In this document: positions 6,372 to 18,999 of the stretch, one piece after another
Numbering within the stretch: position 1 is the stretch's first letter
How the letters are laid out: every line of letters starts with the position of its first letter
IMG/VR virus record: IMGVR_UViG_3300000292_000047
DNA from: a virus
Taxonomy: Duplodnaviria > Heunggongvirae > Uroviricota > Caudoviricetes
DNA: 48,335 nt
Reading direction: 5' to 3' (one strand)
Program-made: the position numbers and the translations under genes
The notes under the pieces: model-generated
What the model saw: the letters and a program-made list of their open reading frames with translations, nothing else
The model's database searches: none
Told to the model about the DNA's origin: nothing

Positions 6372-6416
6372 TGTCGAGGCGTCCTTATACATTTATATAA
6401 ATATATAATTCTATAT

Positions 6417-6438
6417 ACGGCGGGAGACATCCCGCCGT
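6417..6438 (-). terminator. Hairpin downstream of 6449-7516 gene (candidate terminator)
   Basis: acggcggga-gaca-tcccgccgt, 9-bp stem, followed on minus strand by AT-rich tract. Confidence 0.45.
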
Positions 6439-6448
6439 AGGCTTACTG

Positions 6449-7516
6449 TCAGGCTTTCAATAGCGATTCTTTCAGATATCGGGCATCAGCCAGGGCGTTT
6501 GGCGTAATCTTGCGAACCCATGCATTACGGGTTGGACTCCACTTAAAGGCGCGTGATTTAAGCAGCGAACGAATGTTTGCCTCTGGTTTGCCAGGGAAAT
6601 AAAACAGGATGCGGTTATCCTCTGGATCTATCTCCATAGAAAAGCCGTCGTATTCTTCGCGCTGTGCTCCTGTTACAGACTTGACCGATTCAAGCTCCTT
6701 AATACGGCTCTGTAGTCGTTTGATTTCGGCGTTATTGTTGCTCAGTGCGTATGAAGGGAATCCGATGCGCCCACAGAAATCTCCGGCCAGTAACTCTTTG
6801 GCTTCGCTTTCTGTAAACCTGAGATCGATTAATGCAGAAAGCTGCTGTATTTGGTCTTTTTTGTATTTGCGAATGGCCTTATTTGCGGCCTTCATTTTGA
6901 CGTGTGACTTCATGCAGCCTTGCAGCTTACGAAGCAACTTAAATAGCGCATCAGGATCATCAGACGAAATTCCATTACGACCAACACCTGCGGCTTTGCT
7001 CTCGTAGTGTGATGCTTTACTTTCGCATTCAACAAACGCTTTTCTGAATAACGCATCAGCTTTAGACAAACGGCGGCGATGGCCTTTCGCGCTATAATGG
7101 TCAACTAAAATCGGCTGGCCTAACGGGATCACATCCAACAGGTCATGCGCTCGCTTATGCGCTACCGCACCTTCTTTTCTGGCTTTTTCTGCACGAGCAA
7201 TATATCGGGCAAGACGCGCGTTCTGGCGTTCCTGATAGGTGTTTACGTAATCATCTCCGCGCTGCTGCTGTTCAAGCCATGCTTTGCGCAGATCTTCTGT
7301 TACGTCCACCAGCTCCGCAGGGATACAACCAGTTTGGGCTTCATAAGAGTAACCATCCTCATAGATACGCCCATCGTCTTCAACAAAGAAAAAGGTTTCG
7401 TGCTCATCGCTTTTGACCATACGACCATTAACATGGCGTAATAGGTAGCCAGTATCAGTGCTTAACAGGCTGTTAGGGTTGTTGATCCAGTCAGAAATAA
7501 TTACTTGTTTATTCAT
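6449..7516 (-). CDS. Conserved hypothetical protein driven by leader copy B (possibly DUF3560-like)
   Basis: 355 aa from ATG 7514-7516 (MNKQVIISDW) immediately after leader SD ccggagaaatctg; family assignment from memory only. Confidence 0.55.
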   Translation of the reverse strand: MNKQVIISDWINNPNSLLSTDTGYLLRHVNGRMVKSDEHETFFFVEDDGRIYEDGYSYEAQTGCIPAELVDVTEDLRKAWLEQQQRGDDYVNTYQERQNARLARYIARAEKARKEGAVAHKRAHDLLDVIPLGQPILVDHYSAKGHRRRLSKADALFRKAFVECESKASHYESKAAGVGRNGISSDDPDALFKLLRKLQGCMKSHVKMKAANKAIRKYKKDQIQQLSALIDLRFTESEAKELLAGDFCGRIGFPSYALSNNNAEIKRLQSRIKELESVKSVTGAQREEYDGFSMEIDPEDNRILFYFPGKPEANIRSLLKSRAFKWSPTRNAWVRKITPNALADARYLKESLLKA

Positions 7517-7640
7517 CAGATTTCTCCGGTTTAACCAGGGCGGGTATCGCTCGGTTTCGGGTATAACCATAGGAAATTTTTTCCCACCTGTAAAGCACTT
7601 TTTATATAAATCTATAATTATATATTTATAGATTTTCGAT
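7517..7640. repeat. Copy B of ~105-bp promoter/5'-leader repeat
   Basis: Near-identical to 1-118 and 16999-17108. Confidence 0.85.
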
Positions 7641-7685: not shown

Positions 7686-8063
7686 TTACTCTCTTCGCTT
7701 TTTCAAATAGTCGACAACATACGCCCTGGCTTTTGCCAGCTTCCGGCGATACTGTCTGAGGCTAAGAGAAAGGGCGTGGGCTTTATCAATATGCGGTGCA
7801 TTTATGTCGAGGCCCCGAATCTCCCACGCCCCGTATTCAATTCGGACAACCAGCGCCGCAGTCTCATCAACTACCGTGAGGGCCGTCACCGCTCCCTCTA
7901 TACTGGTTTCCAGTGAGTCATTTGGTGCGCCGCCCCCTCCGGTAAACTGGCAGCGCGTAACCATCATCATTTCTAACATCGACGCGAAACCGCTACGGGC
8001 GTTGCAGCCATTGCGCACCCACAGCGCCCATAGCTCAAACAAGCTATCCAGATCGCGTCTCAC
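7686..8063 (-). CDS. Hypothetical protein; possible Q-like antiterminator (weak)
   Basis: 125 aa, GTG start; LFELWALW motif loosely resembles Q-family N-termini; sits immediately upstream of leader copy B. Confidence 0.3.
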   Translation of the reverse strand: MRRDLDSLFELWALWVRNGCNARSGFASMLEMMMVTRCQFTGGGGAPNDSLETSIEGAVTALTVVDETAALVVRIEYGAWEIRGLDINAPHIDKAHALSLSLRQYRRKLAKARAYVVDYLKKRRE

Positions 8064-8066
8064 TGT

Positions 8067-8399
8067 TCAGATCTCCCGTATCGTGACGGGATAAAGCGCC
8101 TCTACCTGCTTTTTCTTCATGATGTAGACGTCTGTTCGCACACCTTTAGTGTCGACACAATCAATCGTCCCATCGTCATAAAACACCATGAAATCAAGTT
8201 TATAAACGACACCACCTGGCAGATGAAAAGGCACCTGCATAAGAAACGTCACAACGCGGCCAGCTTTTCTCAGTAGCTTCAGTTCGCAGTAGTAATCAGC
8301 CTCTTTTTTGCTATCAAAAGCGATATCATCGACAACCGTTTTTTTATTGCCGTATTTGCTTTTCCTGGTCGCTGGTTTGCGAAAGCCGGTATATCTCAT
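8067..8399 (-). CDS. DUF1064-like phage protein
   Basis: 110 aa; SKYGNKKTVVDDIAFDSKKEADYYCELKLL motif typical of this lambdoid nin-region family. Confidence 0.55.
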   Translation of the reverse strand: MRYTGFRKPATRKSKYGNKKTVVDDIAFDSKKEADYYCELKLLRKAGRVVTFLMQVPFHLPGGVVYKLDFMVFYDDGTIDCVDTKGVRTDVYIMKKKQVEALYPVTIREI

Positions 8400-8800
8400 T
8401 TGGTATCCCCTGGTACTTCACCAAGACTAAGATCAAACCCAATTTCGTCTTTAACTGACTGCGGCAACAGCTCCCACGTCTGCGCACACAAAAATTCATC
8501 TGTGCCATAACGCTCAACAAAGCGAGCACAATTACTCAGGGGAGGGTGACGAACGGCAATATGCGGAGGCACACGCCCACCACCAGGCACAACACCGCGA
8601 TGATGTGGTGCGCACAACCCAAAGCTATGGAAGTGGCAATTCTCATCAACGCTGCCGTAATCAGGATCGTGATGTAGCTCCGTCCACAGCTCTGGATTCT
8701 CAATTTCACGGCCATCAATAATGCAAGCTATGCAACCCACGTGAGTGAGCACCGCTTGTATATAAAGTTTCTCTTTCTTCGTTGGTGTACGTCCGTTCAT
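8396..8800 (-). CDS. Cys/His-rich putative zinc-binding protein
   Basis: 134 aa; CIACIIDG...ELHHDP...HFHSFGLCAPHHRG. Confidence 0.45.
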   Translation of the reverse strand: MNGRTPTKKEKLYIQAVLTHVGCIACIIDGREIENPELWTELHHDPDYGSVDENCHFHSFGLCAPHHRGVVPGGGRVPPHIAVRHPPLSNCARFVERYGTDEFLCAQTWELLPQSVKDEIGFDLSLGEVPGDTK

Positions 8801-12650: not shown

Positions 12651-12674
12651 TAAAAAAGGCCCCCGAAGGGGCCT
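12651..12674. terminator. Hairpin terminator, usable on minus strand (bidirectional candidate)
   Basis: aggcccc-cgaa-ggggcct perfect stem; A-run on plus gives U-run on minus. Confidence 0.6.
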
Positions 12675-12679
12675 AATCG

Positions 12680-12802
12680 CTACTTGCTGCTAATGTTTAT
12701 CGTCACATTCAGAGCGTTATCAGTAATCTTCCAACCCTCCCCATGTGGCGTAAACAAAGCCCCAGTAACAACGATAAAAATACACATACAGTATTTTTTC
12801 AT
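12680..12802 (-). CDS. Small hydrophobic peptide (40 aa), candidate type I toxin-like or exported peptide
   Basis: MKKYCMCIFIVVTGALFTPHGEGWKITDNALNVTINISSK; ATG inside track ORF 12680-12862; terminator immediately downstream. Confidence 0.3.
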   Translation of the reverse strand: MKKYCMCIFIVVTGALFTPHGEGWKITDNALNVTINISSK

Positions 12803-13200
12803 TGTATGGCCCTTACAGGCCGTTTCACGGCATCCCCACCGACGAAAACAACGCGAGAGCAAGCACGGCTGCTTGTGCTTGCATGTACGGCAACGGAGAA
12901 TCCTCCCCTAAAGTCGGTGCCCGGGTGCGAATCGGCGGGAAGGTCCACAGGTATTTTACGATTATTTTAAGATTAGTAATAGGAAAGAAATTAAACGAAA
13001 AAACTCGTTTATTTTCACAAAATCAGTAACCTACCCACAATCTGTGAGTTTGCAGGCACAACAAGAATCACAATTTTTTGAAGCATAATAGTGGACTATT
13101 ATTACCTTTTGGGTAAAATTAACTTGCTGCTTGTGCTTGCGTGGTTGTTTATACAACGACGTTATGCTGAAAGGACCGCGAATCCGATCAGCACGAAAGA

Positions 13201-16081: not shown

Positions 16082-16507
16082 ATGAGTTCATCTGCTTTTG
16101 TCACCGTGGTCACTGGTGTAAGTGTTTTTGTTCTAGGCCAACTCATCGTCAAAGGAGCTATTGAGCCTTACATTTCATTCAGGGAACAACTAGGGAAAAT
16201 ATCCAATCTGTTATTGTGTAACCAAGCAAAAATAGTGAATCCTGGCTCGAACTTAAAGCCAGAAATCATTCATGATCTAAAAGATTCCGCAGCACAGTTA
16301 ATGGCGAAATATTCCACTTTACCTTTCTATATCAAAAAGTTACATATCGGCTTTCGTCTTGTTCCATCAGCCACCGAGATTCTTGGAGCAGCTCGAAATT
16401 TGAACTATATAGCGTCAATACATGAAGGTAAGACTGGGGAGAATCCATCTAGGCATCTCGAAGAGATTGGCCATATGCTCAAAATACCAACTACCTATTC
16501 AAGCTAA
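16082..16507 (+). CDS. Membrane-anchored hypothetical protein (N-terminal TM helix)
   Basis: 141 aa; AFVTVVTGVSVFVLGQLIV helix; divergent from HTH gene; AT-rich. Confidence 0.5.
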   Translation: MSSSAFVTVVTGVSVFVLGQLIVKGAIEPYISFREQLGKISNLLLCNQAKIVNPGSNLKPEIIHDLKDSAAQLMAKYSTLPFYIKKLHIGFRLVPSATEILGAARNLNYIASIHEGKTGENPSRHLEEIGHMLKIPTTYSS

Positions 16508-16575
16508 CCCAATGTAAGTTATCGGCTTGCCCCACAATAAGTTATCTATCTTCAAACGCCCCCTATATTAACACT

Positions 16576-16602
16576 CGCAAAGTGTCAAAATGACACTTTG
16601 CG
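16576..16602. terminator. Perfect 12-bp-arm palindrome between convergent genes (bidirectional terminator candidate)
   Basis: cgcaaagtgtca-aaa-tgacactttgcg. Confidence 0.55.
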
Positions 16603-16610
16603 CATTGTGT

Positions 16611-16991
16611 TTACTTAACGAGGAATAAAAATGGTTTATCGTTCGGCGGTGTAATCGGGGCTGGCTCGCTTTTGCTCATGCGATCAGTGTACCAGGCCAA
16701 CTCCTTGTCAAAGTAAGCCTGATTAAAATAGGCCATGAATGTGGTTTCAAATCCATAACGACCGCTAATACGCAGCATCTGATTGCCGTTCTCTGTTTCC
16801 AGATATACCTGGGCACGTTCCTGATTCTCCTTCAGCCAGGTTAAAGCCTCATCGCACGAGGACAAACGATACTCATCATCGTAGCCGTCATCGATGCGGC
16901 TTGAAGAAGAACGGCAAATCACGCCAACAGAACCAGCCAGGATAGTTTGAATTTTAAGGAAAGCGTTTTTGCGGATTTTAATCATGCTCAT
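16611..16991 (-). CDS. Hypothetical protein driven by leader copy C
   Basis: 126 aa; ATG 16989-16991 directly after leader. Confidence 0.55.
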   Translation of the reverse strand: MSMIKIRKNAFLKIQTILAGSVGVICRSSSSRIDDGYDDEYRLSSCDEALTWLKENQERAQVYLETENGNQMLRISGRYGFETTFMAYFNQAYFDKELAWYTDRMSKSEPAPITPPNDKPFLFLVK

Positions 16992-16998
16992 CGGGTTA

Positions 16999-17108
16999 TC
17001 TCCGGTTTAACCAGGGCGAGTATCGCTCGGTTTCGGGCATAACCTTAGGAAATTTTTTCCCACCTGTAAAGCACTTTTTATATAAATCTATAATTATATA
17101 ATTCTATG
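16999..17108. repeat. Copy C of ~105-bp promoter/5'-leader repeat
   Basis: 3 substitutions relative to copy A; SD-proximal end diverged. Confidence 0.85.
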
Positions 17109-17112
17109 ATCA

Positions 17113-17140
17113 CAAAAAAGCCCCTTTGCAACAGGGGCTT
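17113..17140 (-). terminator. Intrinsic terminator of higBA operon
   Basis: Minus strand: aagcccct-gttgcaaa-ggggctt + T6. Confidence 0.65.
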
Positions 17141-17154
17141 ATCATTCGTTCTGA

Positions 17155-17454
17155 TCAGATGTTAAACGCTATTCGTTTTCCTGTGGGAAGCTCAACATCC
17201 AGGCTTAATTTGCCTCCCATAGCTTCAACGTAACGCTTTAATGTCGCCAGCTTTAAATCATTTCCGCGCTGCTCCAGCTTTGTTACTGCTGGCTGGCTTA
17301 TACCCATCGCCTCAGCAACCTGTTTTTGTGATAACTGGAGTTCTTCACGCATCATCTGCAAGCCGACCTCAAGAATCATCTCATCTGCCATTTCTTTAAT
17401 TCGCGCCTGGCTTTCAGGTGAACGGCTGGCAATCACCTCATCTAATGTTCTCAT
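17155..17454 (-). CDS. higA: HigA-like antitoxin (XRE HTH)
   Basis: 99 aa; LSQKQVAEAMGISQPAVTKLE HTH; directly downstream of toxin gene. Confidence 0.65.
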   Translation of the reverse strand: MRTLDEVIASRSPESQARIKEMADEMILEVGLQMMREELQLSQKQVAEAMGISQPAVTKLEQRGNDLKLATLKRYVEAMGGKLSLDVELPTGKRIAFNI

Positions 17455-17801
17455 TACTTGCTCTCCAGTGTGTTCAGATGTGCTGCAAACTCATCCTCAG
17501 CTATACGCACCAGTTTTTCATAAAACCGTTTATCGTTACTTTTGTCTCCTGCACAAAGAACGATGGCCCGGCGAATCGGATCGAACGCATAAAAGGCTCT
17601 TATCGGACGGCCAGAAAACTGAACGCGAAGCTCTTTCATATTTTTGTACCGAGAACCTTTTACGGTATCGGCATATGGCCTGGGTAACTCAGGTCCGTAA
17701 ACCTGTAGCTTTTTCAAATCAGCCAAAACCTTTTCCTGAAGAGCGTCTTCTTGCTCATTTAGCCAGTCGTCAAATCGCTGGCTAAAAAGTACCGTCCACA
17801 T
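17454..17801 (-). CDS. higB: HigB / Gp49-family (RelE/ParE superfamily) toxin
   Basis: Track start is TTG; ATG 17799-17801 with AGGA SD; ELRVQFSGRPIRAFYAF...LCAGDKSNDKRFYEKLVRIAEDE pattern. Confidence 0.65.
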   Translation of the reverse strand: MWTVLFSQRFDDWLNEQEDALQEKVLADLKKLQVYGPELPRPYADTVKGSRYKNMKELRVQFSGRPIRAFYAFDPIRRAIVLCAGDKSNDKRFYEKLVRIAEDEFAAHLNTLESK

Positions 17802-17810
17802 GCTCAATCC

Positions 17811-17856
17811 TATAACCTGTAGTTTATATCACTAACTATATAACCTGTGGGTTATA
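17811..17856. promoter_or_regulatory. higBA promoter/operator with palindrome
   Basis: tataacctgt direct repeat and tataacc-tgtg-ggttata inverted repeat. Confidence 0.45.
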
Positions 17857-18045
17857 ATTTCAAGAAAAACGGGGCTATTTAACATAATGGACGTTATCGG
17901 CACCACCGGATCACCGTTCATTGTCGGATCTAAAAAATCCGCTCAAAAGATCATGTTTTCCTGGGCGTTTTCCACCGTTTTTTATGTTGCTTATTTGTTA
18001 ATGAAATCTCGTTTTCAGTTTCGCCTCATTTTCGACGCGAAAGCC

Positions 18046-18309
18046 CTATTTTTGTGACTTTACTCCTGGCATATGGACTTCCCAGCGACGAATCCCCATA
18101 GCTGCGCAAAAATCAGCCACATAATTCAATCCCGCCCATTCGCGGATACCACCACGGGCTTTTTCAATGAAAACGGCAATCCCTTTTTTATTGAGAGCAA
18201 AAAGCCGCCAGCTTTTTGTCACTTCGTCCTGGGTAGCCACAACACAAGTGAAAGCTCCCATGCGATACAGGTCCAAGAACTCTTTGCGTGTTTTGCGTAC
18301 AAGTTCCAT
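18046..18309 (-). CDS. Hypothetical protein (start uncertain)
   Basis: Track start TTG; ATG 18307-18309 has GAGG SD. Confidence 0.35.
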   Translation of the reverse strand: MELVRKTRKEFLDLYRMGAFTCVVATQDEVTKSWRLFALNKKGIAVFIEKARGGIREWAGLNYVADFCAAMGIRRWEVHMPGVKSQK

Positions 18310-18332
18310 AACAAACCTCATTTTTGCATGTT

Positions 18333-18620
18333 TCAAACATCTGTTTTGTTATCAATGAAGATTAACCCTAACCCAGCGAAGTAACACAGCAGCGCCCAGG
18401 CTGCATACGGAATGCTGGATCTGGATGTGGACTCCTTTAACATCTGCCAGTTGCGAACATTGCGACTATCTTTTAAGCCTAGTTTTTTGGCCAACTGCGA
18501 GCCGCTCATTCCGGTCAGGCCAATGACTGCCCGAACTTCTCCACATGTAGGAGATTCCCATTCATCCGCTTTTTTTAAACAAGCCGGATTCAACATTTTT
18601 AAAACAGTATCTTTATCCAT
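18333..18620 (-). CDS. Putative HTH DNA-binding protein
   Basis: ATG 18618-18620 with GGAGA SD; GLTGMSGSQLAKKLGL..RNVRNWQ. Confidence 0.4.
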   Translation of the reverse strand: MDKDTVLKMLNPACLKKADEWESPTCGEVRAVIGLTGMSGSQLAKKLGLKDSRNVRNWQMLKESTSRSSIPYAAWALLCYFAGLGLIFIDNKTDV

Positions 18621-18999
18621 AACCATCTCCATTTATTATATCTACGATGGTAGGAAATCTTTTCCTATGTGGCAATAGAAATTTACTACATTGCGTATAA
18701 GACAAGTTTTCTATGTCTAATAGGAAATGATGTTTCTTACATTTTATCGCGTTCTGATGGCTACTGTGTGCGTATTTATCGACGTTTATTGATAAGGCTC
18801 GCCCCTTCCTCCTGCAAAGCCCGGCCGTAGGCCTTATTTCGGCCTTATATAAATTGATTTTGTATAGTTCGAAACGTGCCGTTTCGAAAAGGATGATCAG
18901 GCTGCTCCATGCCTCCGGCAAGTGCCGGAGGAGGTATATTTGAGCGTAGCGACTCGAACCGGCGCGAGCTTTAGCTCGCTGCAAGGGCGAACATATTCA

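Follow-up and report, generated by a model that had tools for sequence, protein, structure and literature searches.

A HigB2-type toxin–antitoxin cassette beside a dif-like Xer site in an Escherichia coli phage-plasmid

The module described here is an ordinary toxin–antitoxin cassette of the HigB2 type, in which the gene of a RelE-like Gp49 toxin precedes that of an Xre-type antitoxin, and it is encoded entirely on the minus strand of the stretch of 48,335 nucleotides that was analysed (the window). We consider it quite probable that the pair forms an autoregulated type II operon of the Gp49 (HigB2/Tad)–Xre (HigA2/Ata) kind and belongs to the plasmid-maintenance equipment of an E. coli phage-plasmid of about 48 kb. 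The cassette is of a known kind and already annotated in public records; as the feature is a conventional type II module, the result is mainly one of housekeeping and calls for no follow-up as a discovery. The analysis adds a two-operator promoter layout and a link between residue 59 of the antitoxin (Q, K or A) and one base of the operator half-site (G, C or A). The elements of the cassette are as follows.

17454..17801, minus strand: toxin gene, Gp49/DUF891 protein of HigB2/Tad type with predicted RelE fold, 115 aa plus stop (Pfam, PHROG, AF2/Foldseek, public annotation)
17155..17454, minus strand: antitoxin gene, Xre-type HTH protein, 99 aa plus stop (HTH_3, HTH_37, HigA3/HigA2, PHROG 2339)
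17808..17811, minus strand: Shine-Dalgarno sequence AGGA of the toxin (read from the sequence)
17858..17863, minus strand: -35 hexamer TTGAAA (consensus scan)
17835..17840, minus strand: -10 hexamer TATAGT, sharing the last two bases of O1 (consensus scan)
17839..17856, unstranded: predicted operator O1, perfect palindrome TATAACC-TGTG-GGTTATA with 7-bp arms, filling the -35/-10 spacer
17811..17828, unstranded: predicted operator O2, imperfect palindrome TATAACC-TGTA-GTTTATA with 1 mismatch, spanning the predicted transcription start and extending to the Shine-Dalgarno motif
17112..17140, minus strand (17140..17118 in the narrower delimitation): intrinsic terminator whose 8-bp stem has 5 G-C pairs, with a loop of 7 nt and T6 (TTTTTTG) (folding)

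The original prediction had proposed a toxin-first gene order with a start/stop overlap of 1 nt, and both are found: base 17454 is common to the two genes (..AAG TAATG AGA..). An antitoxin homologue lies directly downstream of the toxin, on the same strand, at all 80 homologous loci examined, which span Enterobacterales, Pasteurellaceae, Acinetobacter and Oligella. The Shine-Dalgarno sequence of the antitoxin, GGAGAG, sits within the 3' end of the toxin gene, and a consensus promoter scan of 16500-18500 gave no internal antitoxin promoter within that gene. The cassette has a single sigma-70 promoter, the junction TAATG and its own terminator, and its sequence indicates a bicistronic, translationally coupled mRNA that would end at this terminator.

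The open reading frame of the toxin as listed mechanically, 17454..17807 on the minus strand, starts at TTG. Translation most probably begins at the ATG at 17801, which is preceded by the AGGA motif and agrees with the GenBank/RefSeq annotation of 115 aa. Both gene products match profiles of the expected families, as had been anticipated. The toxin scores 81.2 bits with Pfam Gp49/DUF891 (PF05973, COG4679; cutoff 23.9) over 89 of the 90 positions of the profile, and it also matches PHROG 3445 'toxin' at 2e-33; PF05973 is likewise present in all 120 toxin homologues among the matches listed, and public records label the protein 'higB2 putative toxin' and 'RelE/ParE family toxin'. Its AF2 model (pLDDT 85.5) is predicted to adopt a RelE-like fold of N-terminal helices, an antiparallel sheet and a long C-terminal helix (residues 91-114). 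A Foldseek search with this model returned T. thermophilus RelE, VcHigB2 and E. coli RelE (E 1e-4 to 3e-4, probability 1.0, TM 0.6-0.8), the top structural matches being RelE, VcHigB2, YoeB and M. tuberculosis HigB1. A sequence search of the PDB gave no true match up to E <= 10, either with the single sequence or with a 36-sequence profile, and the relation of the toxin to solved toxins is thus far one of predicted fold only. Invariant basic and aromatic residues lie on the sheet and where the C-terminal helix begins (K56, R59, R68, K87, K91 and Y94); as a guess, K56, R59, R68, K87 and Y94 might be the counterparts of the RelE catalytic residues.

The pair had been described as being of HigB/HigA type. 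This stands as far as a RelE-superfamily toxin and a HigA-like antitoxin are concerned, while the toxin is not a member of the canonical HigB family of plasmid Rts1 and E. coli: a Pfam scan (E <= 0.01) gave Gp49 alone, and the E. coli and Shigella HigB structures come low in the fold search (E 0.07-0.26). The toxin belongs instead to the Gp49 (HigB2/Tad) branch. The antitoxin consists of some 30 N-terminal residues, nearly invariant among close homologues, followed by the HTH (residues 32-83) and a short tail at the C-terminus. It matches HTH_3 with 40 bits (cutoff 23), HTH_37 with 31.7 bits (cutoff 27) and PHROG 2339, and its closest solved relatives are M. tuberculosis HigA3 (6lty, 4.6e-5) and HigA2 (7ewc, 2.5e-4), with S. 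pneumoniae HigA at 5e-3. An AF2 model of the antitoxin was discarded (pLDDT 60, from a shallow alignment of 87-100% identity).

The predicted promoter of the cassette is of a strong sigma-70 type. TTGAAA and TATAGT, separated by 17 nt (17863..17835, minus strand), match the consensus at 10 of 12 positions and form the sole promoter-like site in 16500-18500; in homologous loci TTGAAA or TTGACA stands at the same position, directly 5' of the first operator. A palindrome tataacc-tgtg-ggttata had been noticed upstream of the genes, and it is indeed present as O1, but not as the only copy: the second, O2, had been missed. The starts of O2 and O1 are 28 nt apart, and the pattern occurs twice in the 48-kb window at <=2 mismatches, both times within the cassette promoter, against 0.14 occurrences expected. 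Among 77 distinct upstream regions of homologous loci, 62 keep the dyad ATAAnn-N4-nnTTAT, where chance would give 0.013 per 132 nt, and 38 of the 77 carry two dyads with a start-to-start spacing of 18-29 nt. Two-operator layout and half-site are defined for the enterobacterial and Pasteurellaceae branch only; the Acinetobacter loci differ in having another dyad, ATATAG..CTATAT.

Between lineages both arms of the dyad change together, from ATAAGC to ATAACC to ATAAAC. The variable half-site base covaries with residue 59 of the antitoxin, which is predicted to lie in the recognition helix: Q goes with G in 30 of 36 cases, A with A in 7 of 7 and K with C in 2 of 4. None of 10000 permutations gave an association as strong, by a statistic that ignores phylogeny. 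At the other end of the operon, the strong terminator claimed for the module is present as well (-19.6 kcal/mol, z = -3.7), just outside the extent given in the original prediction, which began at 17155. The 'leader copy C' said to adjoin the module is a 116-nt repeat at 16991-17106 that starts 12 nt past the terminator stem and is 92% identical to the copies at 1-116 and 7515-7630.

On the promoter side the cassette has a further neighbour. Xer cores comprise 28-30 bp, namely an 11-bp XerC arm, a spacer of 6-8 bp and an 11-bp XerD arm, and in cer-like sites the XerC side is flanked by some 180 bp of accessory DNA to which PepA/ArgR or ArcA bind, multimer resolution being dependent on XerCD. 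Two features of the window are relevant here.

17877..17904, minus strand: dif/cer-like Xer core GGTGCCGATAA-CGTCCA-TTATGTTAAAT (match to the E. coli dif arms)
17905..18054, unstranded: about 150 nt of conserved non-coding DNA flanking the XerC arm of the core (comparison with other plasmids)

The core lies 14 bp upstream of the -35 hexamer, as a neighbour of the cassette outside the operon. It differs from E. coli dif (reference sequence from PMC3025954) by 2 mismatches, with a perfect XerD arm, and is the sole match to the dif arms in the window at <=3 mismatches (0.00 expected). The adjoining stretch is visibly better conserved in other E. coli plasmids than the toxin–antitoxin genes, which are 76% identical there, and the sequence beside the core is 81% identical to positions 6403-6522 of Yersinia pestis plasmid pPCP1. 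The stretch possibly provides the accessory DNA that a cer-like site for multimer resolution would need; neither an ArgR nor an ArcA box was identified in it. A search of 16400-18700 against Rfam at E <= 1 gave no match, so the stretch does not correspond to a known RNA family. At the antitoxin end, AGATGTTAAAC (17157-17167) was considered as part of a further Xer site and rejected: it resembles a XerD arm at 8 of 11 positions, but the XerC arm that would go with it agrees at only 1 of 11, and the motif is just the last codons of the antitoxin.

From these elements a mechanism can be proposed. A dimer of the antitoxin, alone or with the toxin as corepressor, would bind the two 18-bp dyads, and the operon would thereby repress itself, since O1 occupies the -35/-10 spacer and O2 lies across the transcription start. 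Judging from the homologous modules HigB2/HigA2 of V. cholerae and HigBA2 of A. baumannii, the N-terminal 30 or so residues of the antitoxin may wrap around the toxin and neutralise it. Loss of the plasmid, or degradation of a labile antitoxin, would free the RelE-fold toxin, which might then cleave mRNA, probably on the ribosome, so that plasmid-free segregants would stop growing (post-segregational killing). The toxicity and RNase activity of this module, the lability of its antitoxin and its stabilising or addictive effect are inferred; no experiment on exactly this module turned up in the literature searched. Plasmid multimers would be resolved at the adjacent Xer site, and toxin–antitoxin pair and Xer site together would thus make up a small stability cluster, giving the phage-plasmid a compact set of maintenance functions.

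The replicon context fits this proposal. The element is recorded both as an E. coli plasmid of about 48 kb and as a 'complete phage genome', which makes the label 'phage-plasmid' of the original prediction a reasonable one. Annotated copies of the cassette, identical or nearly so, are found in over 100 plasmids; of the 104 E. coli copies, 103 are plasmid-borne. A role in plasmid maintenance is favoured because of this distribution, the nearby repA and parA, and the adjacent Xer site. More distant homologues are found in many genera, mostly on large contigs or chromosomes, where 'addiction' is not an obvious role.

Three other readings were weighed against plasmid maintenance. Defence genes are often found as morons in temperate phages and phage-plasmids, and the insulated layout of the cassette, with its own promoter and terminator, would suit a moron whose main role is abortive infection: another phage, on infecting, would shut off host transcription or cause the antitoxin to be degraded, the toxin thus freed would arrest the cell, and the resident phage-plasmid would exclude its competitors. 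PHROG places family 3445 in its category 'moron, auxiliary metabolic gene and host takeover', and at domain level the toxin resembles the C-terminal third of NsnC, a PADLOC model (27 bits; positions 190-290 of its 294). Apart from this partial match and generic HTH matches, however, PADLOC-DB 2.0 gave no full match to any system and none for the flanking genes, and no defence phenotype of Gp49-type modules was found reported in the literature searched. The cassette also travels with the Xer site and occurs on small plasmids that are not phages, such as pPCP1 and conjugative plasmids of 24 kb, a pattern that points to plasmid maintenance, and we regard defence as an unlikely main role.

The other two readings are less probable still. 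That the toxin is a ParE-like gyrase poison and not an mRNA endonuclease, which would leave operon, autoregulation and addiction unchanged, seems very unlikely to us. Gp49 falls within the RelE/ParE superfamily, the RefSeq name goes no further than 'RelE/ParE family toxin', the modelled C-terminal helix is long, and the residues of the toxin could not be aligned to the RelE catalytic residues (hhalign of the toxin profile with an approximate E. coli RelE sequence gave no alignment). Yet the best structural matches are RelE-type toxins and HigB proteins, the only ParE-labelled chain (6n90) ranks 34th with E 5e-2, and a Pfam ParE_toxin match is absent. The Gp49-domain toxin studied in A. baumannii breaks down RNA in vitro, and the invariant residues of the toxin are, by inference, what a RelE-type active site would lead one to expect. 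We give even less credence to the idea that the pair mainly regulates the life cycle of the phage-plasmid and is no killing system, in the manner of the prophage-borne PfiT/PfiA, which reportedly controls prophage gene expression or virion production. The fold search does return the PfiAT complex (9w3a, E about 1e-2), and the module lies between two transcription units of the phage-plasmid, beside the repeated 116-nt 'leader'. Against this, the operator dyad is confined, within the 48-kb window, to the module's own promoter, so that no other promoter of the phage-plasmid is an evident target, and the same cassette occurs in non-phage replicons and in the chromosomes of many genera.

The maintenance reading could be widened. 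The toxin–antitoxin genes and the cer-like Xer site might form a portable 'stability cassette' that XerCD, recombining at the core, exchanges between unrelated enterobacterial replicons, much as pdif modules are in Acinetobacter plasmids; the 48-kb phage-plasmids, the 24-kb conjugative plasmids and pPCP1 would be the candidate partners. The 95% homology between window and pPCP1 ends inside the spacer of the Xer core (window 17890), a second Xer-like core of pPCP1 lies at that junction, and window 17868-17987, next to the core, is found elsewhere in pPCP1, beside that plasmid's own cer-type core. Speaking against exchange, the other boundary of the homology (17165) falls in the last codons of the antitoxin, with no convincing Xer site there. 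To our knowledge, pdif-type modules are not an established phenomenon in Enterobacterales, and on balance we think such a portable cassette improbable.

Among characterised systems, the V. cholerae HigB2–HigA2 module (PDB 5ja8, 5jaa, 8a0x) shares with the cassette a toxin-first operon, a palindromic operator and an antitoxin whose N-terminal segment precedes a C-terminal HTH domain. Over its full length the toxin model aligns best with VcHigB2 (TM 0.67 over 114 columns), likewise a RelE fold that has a C-terminal helix. Identity in that structural alignment is about 17%, with no match at sequence level, and the V. cholerae module is chromosomal, located in a superintegron. VcHigB2 is a ribosome-dependent mRNase that is neutralised by the disordered N-terminus of HigA2 (PMC5416850). 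Similarly, HigBA2 of A. baumannii plasmid pAB120 is plasmid-borne and combines a Gp49 toxin, encoded first, with an Xre antitoxin; its HigB2 is an RNase in vitro and acts as corepressor when HigA2 represses the operon (PMC5906591). The M. tuberculosis modules HigBA2 (Rv2022c/Rv2021c) and HigBA3 (Rv3182/Rv3183) show the same order of a Gp49-domain HigB and an Xre antitoxin. The pAB120 and M. tuberculosis systems are distant in sequence, and their toxins are set beside ours by family only.

Toxins of the Tad/COG4679/DUF891 family are described in PMC2701414 as RelE-like and paired with Xre antitoxins. Tad–Ata of Paracoccus aminophilus pAMI2, gp49–gp48 of N15 and s045–s044 of SXT all have a COG4679/DUF891 toxin encoded first and an Xre-HTH antitoxin, and the same paper, citing Dziewit et al. 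2007, presents Tad–Ata and its homologues as stabilising systems of plasmids, of a linear phage-plasmid and of an ICE. The setting of the N15 pair is also a phage-plasmid. A tblastn search of phages with the toxin did not recover N15 gp49 at E <= 1e-3, so the two toxins are distant members of one Pfam family.

The closest counterpart is the pair YPPCP1.09c/YPPCP1.08c of Y. pestis pPCP1, annotated as a RelE/ParE toxin and an HTH protein, whose DNA is 95% identical over window 17165-17890, promoter and operators included. The pPCP1 copy differs in its less symmetric operators and shares neither the terminator nor the last three antitoxin codons; it resides not on a phage-plasmid but on a plasmid of 9.6 kb that codes for a Rop protein. 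In microarrays YPPCP1.08c and.09c show co-expression (r = 0.97; PMC2231364); this entry and a primer location were all that the literature searched yielded on the pPCP1 module or on the phage-plasmid analysed here, with no functional study among it. The presence of nearly the same, apparently functionally uncharacterised cassette on pPCP1 may be of interest for work on the stability of that plasmid and on plasmid curing.

The module lies on the minus strand and forms a coupled bicistron with a single promoter and its own terminator. Its elements are the following:

17863..17835, minus strand: sigma-70-like promoter TTGAAA-17 nt-TATAGT, 10/12 matches in a consensus scan
17839-17856: palindrome O1, TATAACC-TGTG-GGTTATA, filling the -35/-10 spacer exactly
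17811-17828: O2, a second copy of the palindrome with one mismatch, its start offset by 28 nt from that of O1
17454..17807, minus strand: toxin ORF as listed, 117 aa from a TTG start
17801, minus strand: likely real toxin start (ATG), 115-aa product
17155..17454, minus strand: antitoxin ORF, 99 aa
17140..17118, minus strand: intrinsic terminator after the antitoxin stop, 8-bp stem (5 G-C pairs), 7-nt loop, TTTTTTG

The toxin most likely starts at ATG 17801, because an AGGA (17808-17811) precedes this codon and the GenBank and RefSeq copies annotate a 115-aa product. The toxin-first order with a 1-nt overlap, as originally described, holds: base 17454 is common to both genes (..AAG-TAATG-AGA..). 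The antitoxin Shine-Dalgarno sequence, GGAGAG, is located within the final toxin codons, an arrangement that fits translational coupling of both genes. The promoter is the only sigma-70-like one found by the consensus scan between 16500 and 18500. The upstream palindrome is present exactly as reported, but it is one of two candidate operators rather than a single one, with O2 spanning the predicted transcription start as far as the Shine-Dalgarno sequence. Allowing up to two mismatches, the pattern occurs twice in the 48-kb window against 0.14 expected; both matches are in the module promoter, and no further copy was found elsewhere.

The predicted strong terminator is also real (-19.6 kcal/mol, z = -3.7), but it lies outside the 17155-17856 interval first assigned to the module. 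Directly past it starts a copy of a 116-nt repeat (16991-17106), correctly noted as the adjacent 'leader copy C'; the module is therefore insulated, with another transcription unit on either side. The repeat has three copies in all (1-116, 7515-7630 and 16991-17106; 92-97% identity), and a minus-strand gene follows each of them. About ten copies of an AT-rich 34-nt motif resembling TATATAAATCTATAATTATATAAT are scattered over the window, among them those at 86, 1221, 6383, 7600, 11354, 11427, 17076 and 30472. Repeat and motif may represent a promoter/operator that recurs within the regulatory circuit of the phage-plasmid itself.

Profile searches place both proteins in toxin-antitoxin families, as the original prediction of a HigB/HigA-type system anticipated, with the refinement that the toxin belongs to the Gp49/HigB2-Tad branch and not to canonical HigB. 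It matches Pfam Gp49/DUF891 (PF05973) with 81.2 bits (cutoff 23.9) over 89 of 90 profile positions, and no other Pfam family, including canonical HigB and ParE, at E <= 0.01. It also matches PHROG 3445 'toxin' (2e-33), while NCBIfam returned a sub-threshold RelE/ParE family model and nothing else. An AF2 model from 36 homologues (pLDDT 85.5, pTM 0.78) predicts a short strand, two helices, a four-stranded sheet and a long C-terminal helix. The top Foldseek matches of this model in the PDB are all RelE-superfamily toxins, namely T. thermophilus RelE, V. cholerae HigB2, E. coli RelE, M. tuberculosis RelE and HigB1, and YoeB; the best full-length match is V. cholerae HigB2 (TM 0.67 over 114 columns). 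Searches of solved chains with the single toxin sequence or a profile gave no sequence-level match. Residues K56, R59, R68, K87, K91 and Y94 are invariant among toxin homologues; they could not be aligned onto RelE (toxin profile against an E. coli RelE sequence), and we would guess that they are of the kind expected in a RelE-type site. The HigA-like antitoxin carries a Cro/C1-type HTH at residues 32-83 (HTH_3 40 bits, HTH_37 31.7 bits, both above cutoffs), preceded by about 30 N-terminal residues. Among proteins of solved structure, those closest to it in sequence are HigA3 (6lty, 4.6e-5) and HigA2 (7ewc, 2.5e-4) of M. tuberculosis and S. pneumoniae HigA.

Pairing and operators were evaluated in a homologue scan with one genome per species, yielding 80 loci with toxin homologues (54-98% identity) from Enterobacterales, Pasteurellaceae, Acinetobacter, Oligella, Pelistega and others. 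In all 80, the gene directly 3' of the toxin on the same strand encodes an antitoxin homologue (51-95% identity). The dyad ATAAnn-N4-nnTTAT occurs at least once in 62 of 77 distinct upstream regions and twice, 18-29 nt apart, in 38, against a background of 0.013 per 132 nt in the remainder of the same loci. Enterobacterial loci share the window's arrangement exactly: TTGAAA or TTGACA immediately precedes the first dyad, whose 3' arm is overlapped by the -10. The variable half-site positions vary in concert on both arms: the majority of loci have ATAAGC, the window and pPCP1 share ATAACC, and Buttiauxella and Dryocola have ATAAAC. The first variable base follows antitoxin residue 59 in the recognition helix SQPAxT-Q/K/A (Q-G in 30/36 distinct combinations, A-A in 7/7, K-C in 2/4), and none of 10000 permutations, which ignore shared ancestry, gave as strong an association. 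This covariation is good, though indirect, evidence for recognition of the promoter dyads by the antitoxin. Eight loci from Acinetobacter, Vitreoscilla and Alteromonadaceae (L063, L064, L066, L067, L071, L076, L078 and L082) have the recognition helix KQPSLSA or SQPSVVA and a single different dyad of the ATATAG-N-CTATAT type near the start codon, which suggests a second operator specificity class within the family.

The window is up to 100% identical to E. coli plasmids of about 48 kb and 99.3-99.5% identical to the Yersinia phages vB_YpM_39, 41 and 44 (three 'complete genome' records), in which the toxin is already named higB2. RefSeq names the products 'type II toxin-antitoxin system RelE/ParE family toxin' and 'helix-turn-helix domain-containing protein'. 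The neighbourhood is consistent with a phage-plasmid because repA, parA, a Hin-like invertase, tail fibre genes and a Ref nuclease are nearby. Matches above the Rfam gathering score were obtained for four RNAs:

12652-12948, minus strand: ryfA RNA, 141.8 bits
13320-13392, plus strand: isrK, 67.7 bits
13417-13505, plus strand: C4 antisense RNA, 77.8 bits
1012-1084, minus strand: tRNA

The pairing of isrK with C4 resembles the P1/P7-type immunity I region. The module occurs in 100 of 5426 complete E. coli genomes, with 103 of 104 copies plasmid-borne, and in 52 Yersinia plasmid records, most of those listed being about 9.6 kb. One of these, pPCP1 of Y. pestis CO92 (L083, NC_003132), carries the cassette as YPPCP1.09c and YPPCP1.08c, 95% identical between window 17165-17890 and pPCP1 7800-8524. 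A microarray study found these two genes to be a co-expressed operon of unknown function (r = 0.97; PMC2231364), and our literature search turned up no study of what this orthologue does. The cassette also appears on a 9.6-kb scaffold of a Bacillota assembly (L003, Amphibacillus jilinensis Y1 Scaffold15; toxin 98%, antitoxin 95% identity to the window); these values and the upstream and junction sequences equal those of a Y. pestis copy (L004), so that the scaffold is probably contamination with, or a misassigned, pPCP1-like plasmid.

Other roles for the module can be weighed against these data. A ParE-like target of the toxin is unlikely: ParE-labelled chains come far down the Foldseek ranking, and RNA degradation in vitro has been shown for one Gp49 family member, HigB2 from an A. 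baumannii plasmid (PMC5906591). A module that purely regulates the phage-plasmid cycle is unlikely, given an operator dyad confined in the window to the module's own promoter and a cassette present on non-phage replicons too. A partial domain-level PADLOC match of the toxin and the moron-like layout would suit an abortive infection or defence system, to which we assign a small probability.

Upstream of the module lies a further element:

17904..17877, minus strand: dif/cer-like Xer core GGTGCCGATAA-CGTCCA-TTATGTTAAAT, 14 bp upstream of the -35

This core, the single such site in the window (0.00 expected), has a perfect XerD arm and two mismatches to the arms of E. coli dif, GGTGCGCATAA-TGTATA-TTATGTTAAAT (PMC3025954). 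In 24-34-kb E. coli plasmids the conservation of the XerC-side non-coding stretch of about 150 nt (17905 to ~18054) visibly exceeds that of the toxin-antitoxin genes (76%). Window 17868-17987 is 81% identical to pPCP1 6403-6522, where the corresponding position holds a cer-type XerD arm, TTATGGTAAAT. Core and stretch are probably a multimer-resolution site and resemble the cer/psi type flanked by accessory sequences; with the toxin-antitoxin module, this site would make a stability cluster. The cassette homology with pPCP1 stops within the Xer core spacer, at window 17890; pPCP1 has a second Xer-like core at this junction, GGTGCGTACAA-ATTGCCG-TTATGTTAAAT, and the piece adjoining the core in the window lies beyond pla in pPCP1, beside the cer-type core. 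This hints at a past Xer-mediated exchange between replicons, a reading of low probability because no Xer site was found at the other cassette boundary (17165). In E. coli pFHI_NMBU_11_03 (L084, 2636-3202) the Xer-adjacent stretch lies beside a 99-aa HTH gene without annotated toxin; DUF5397 and a 'virulence factor' gene come next after the HTH gene, and the promoter has a different dyad. The Xer-site region may be a junction joining different small modules.

The observation is confirmed, and its interpretation as a toxin-antitoxin system is supported with these refinements. The mechanism we propose follows published relatives by analogy. Gp49/DUF891/COG4679 ('Tad') toxins are RelE-like and partnered by Xre antitoxins (PMC2701414), and the studied Gp49-type modules are all toxin-first (PMC5906591). 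In A. baumannii HigA2 represses its promoter, and the toxin serves as corepressor (PMC5906591); for the present module, the comparative data suggest repression by antitoxin dimers at O1 and O2. [quoted passage not shown] By homology, the N-terminal antitoxin segment would neutralise the toxin, freed toxin would cleave mRNA, and post-segregational growth arrest would stabilise the plasmid prophage. Nothing about the module, or the function ascribed to it, appears surprising: it is of a known kind, and its exact sequence is already annotated as toxin-antitoxin in many public records.
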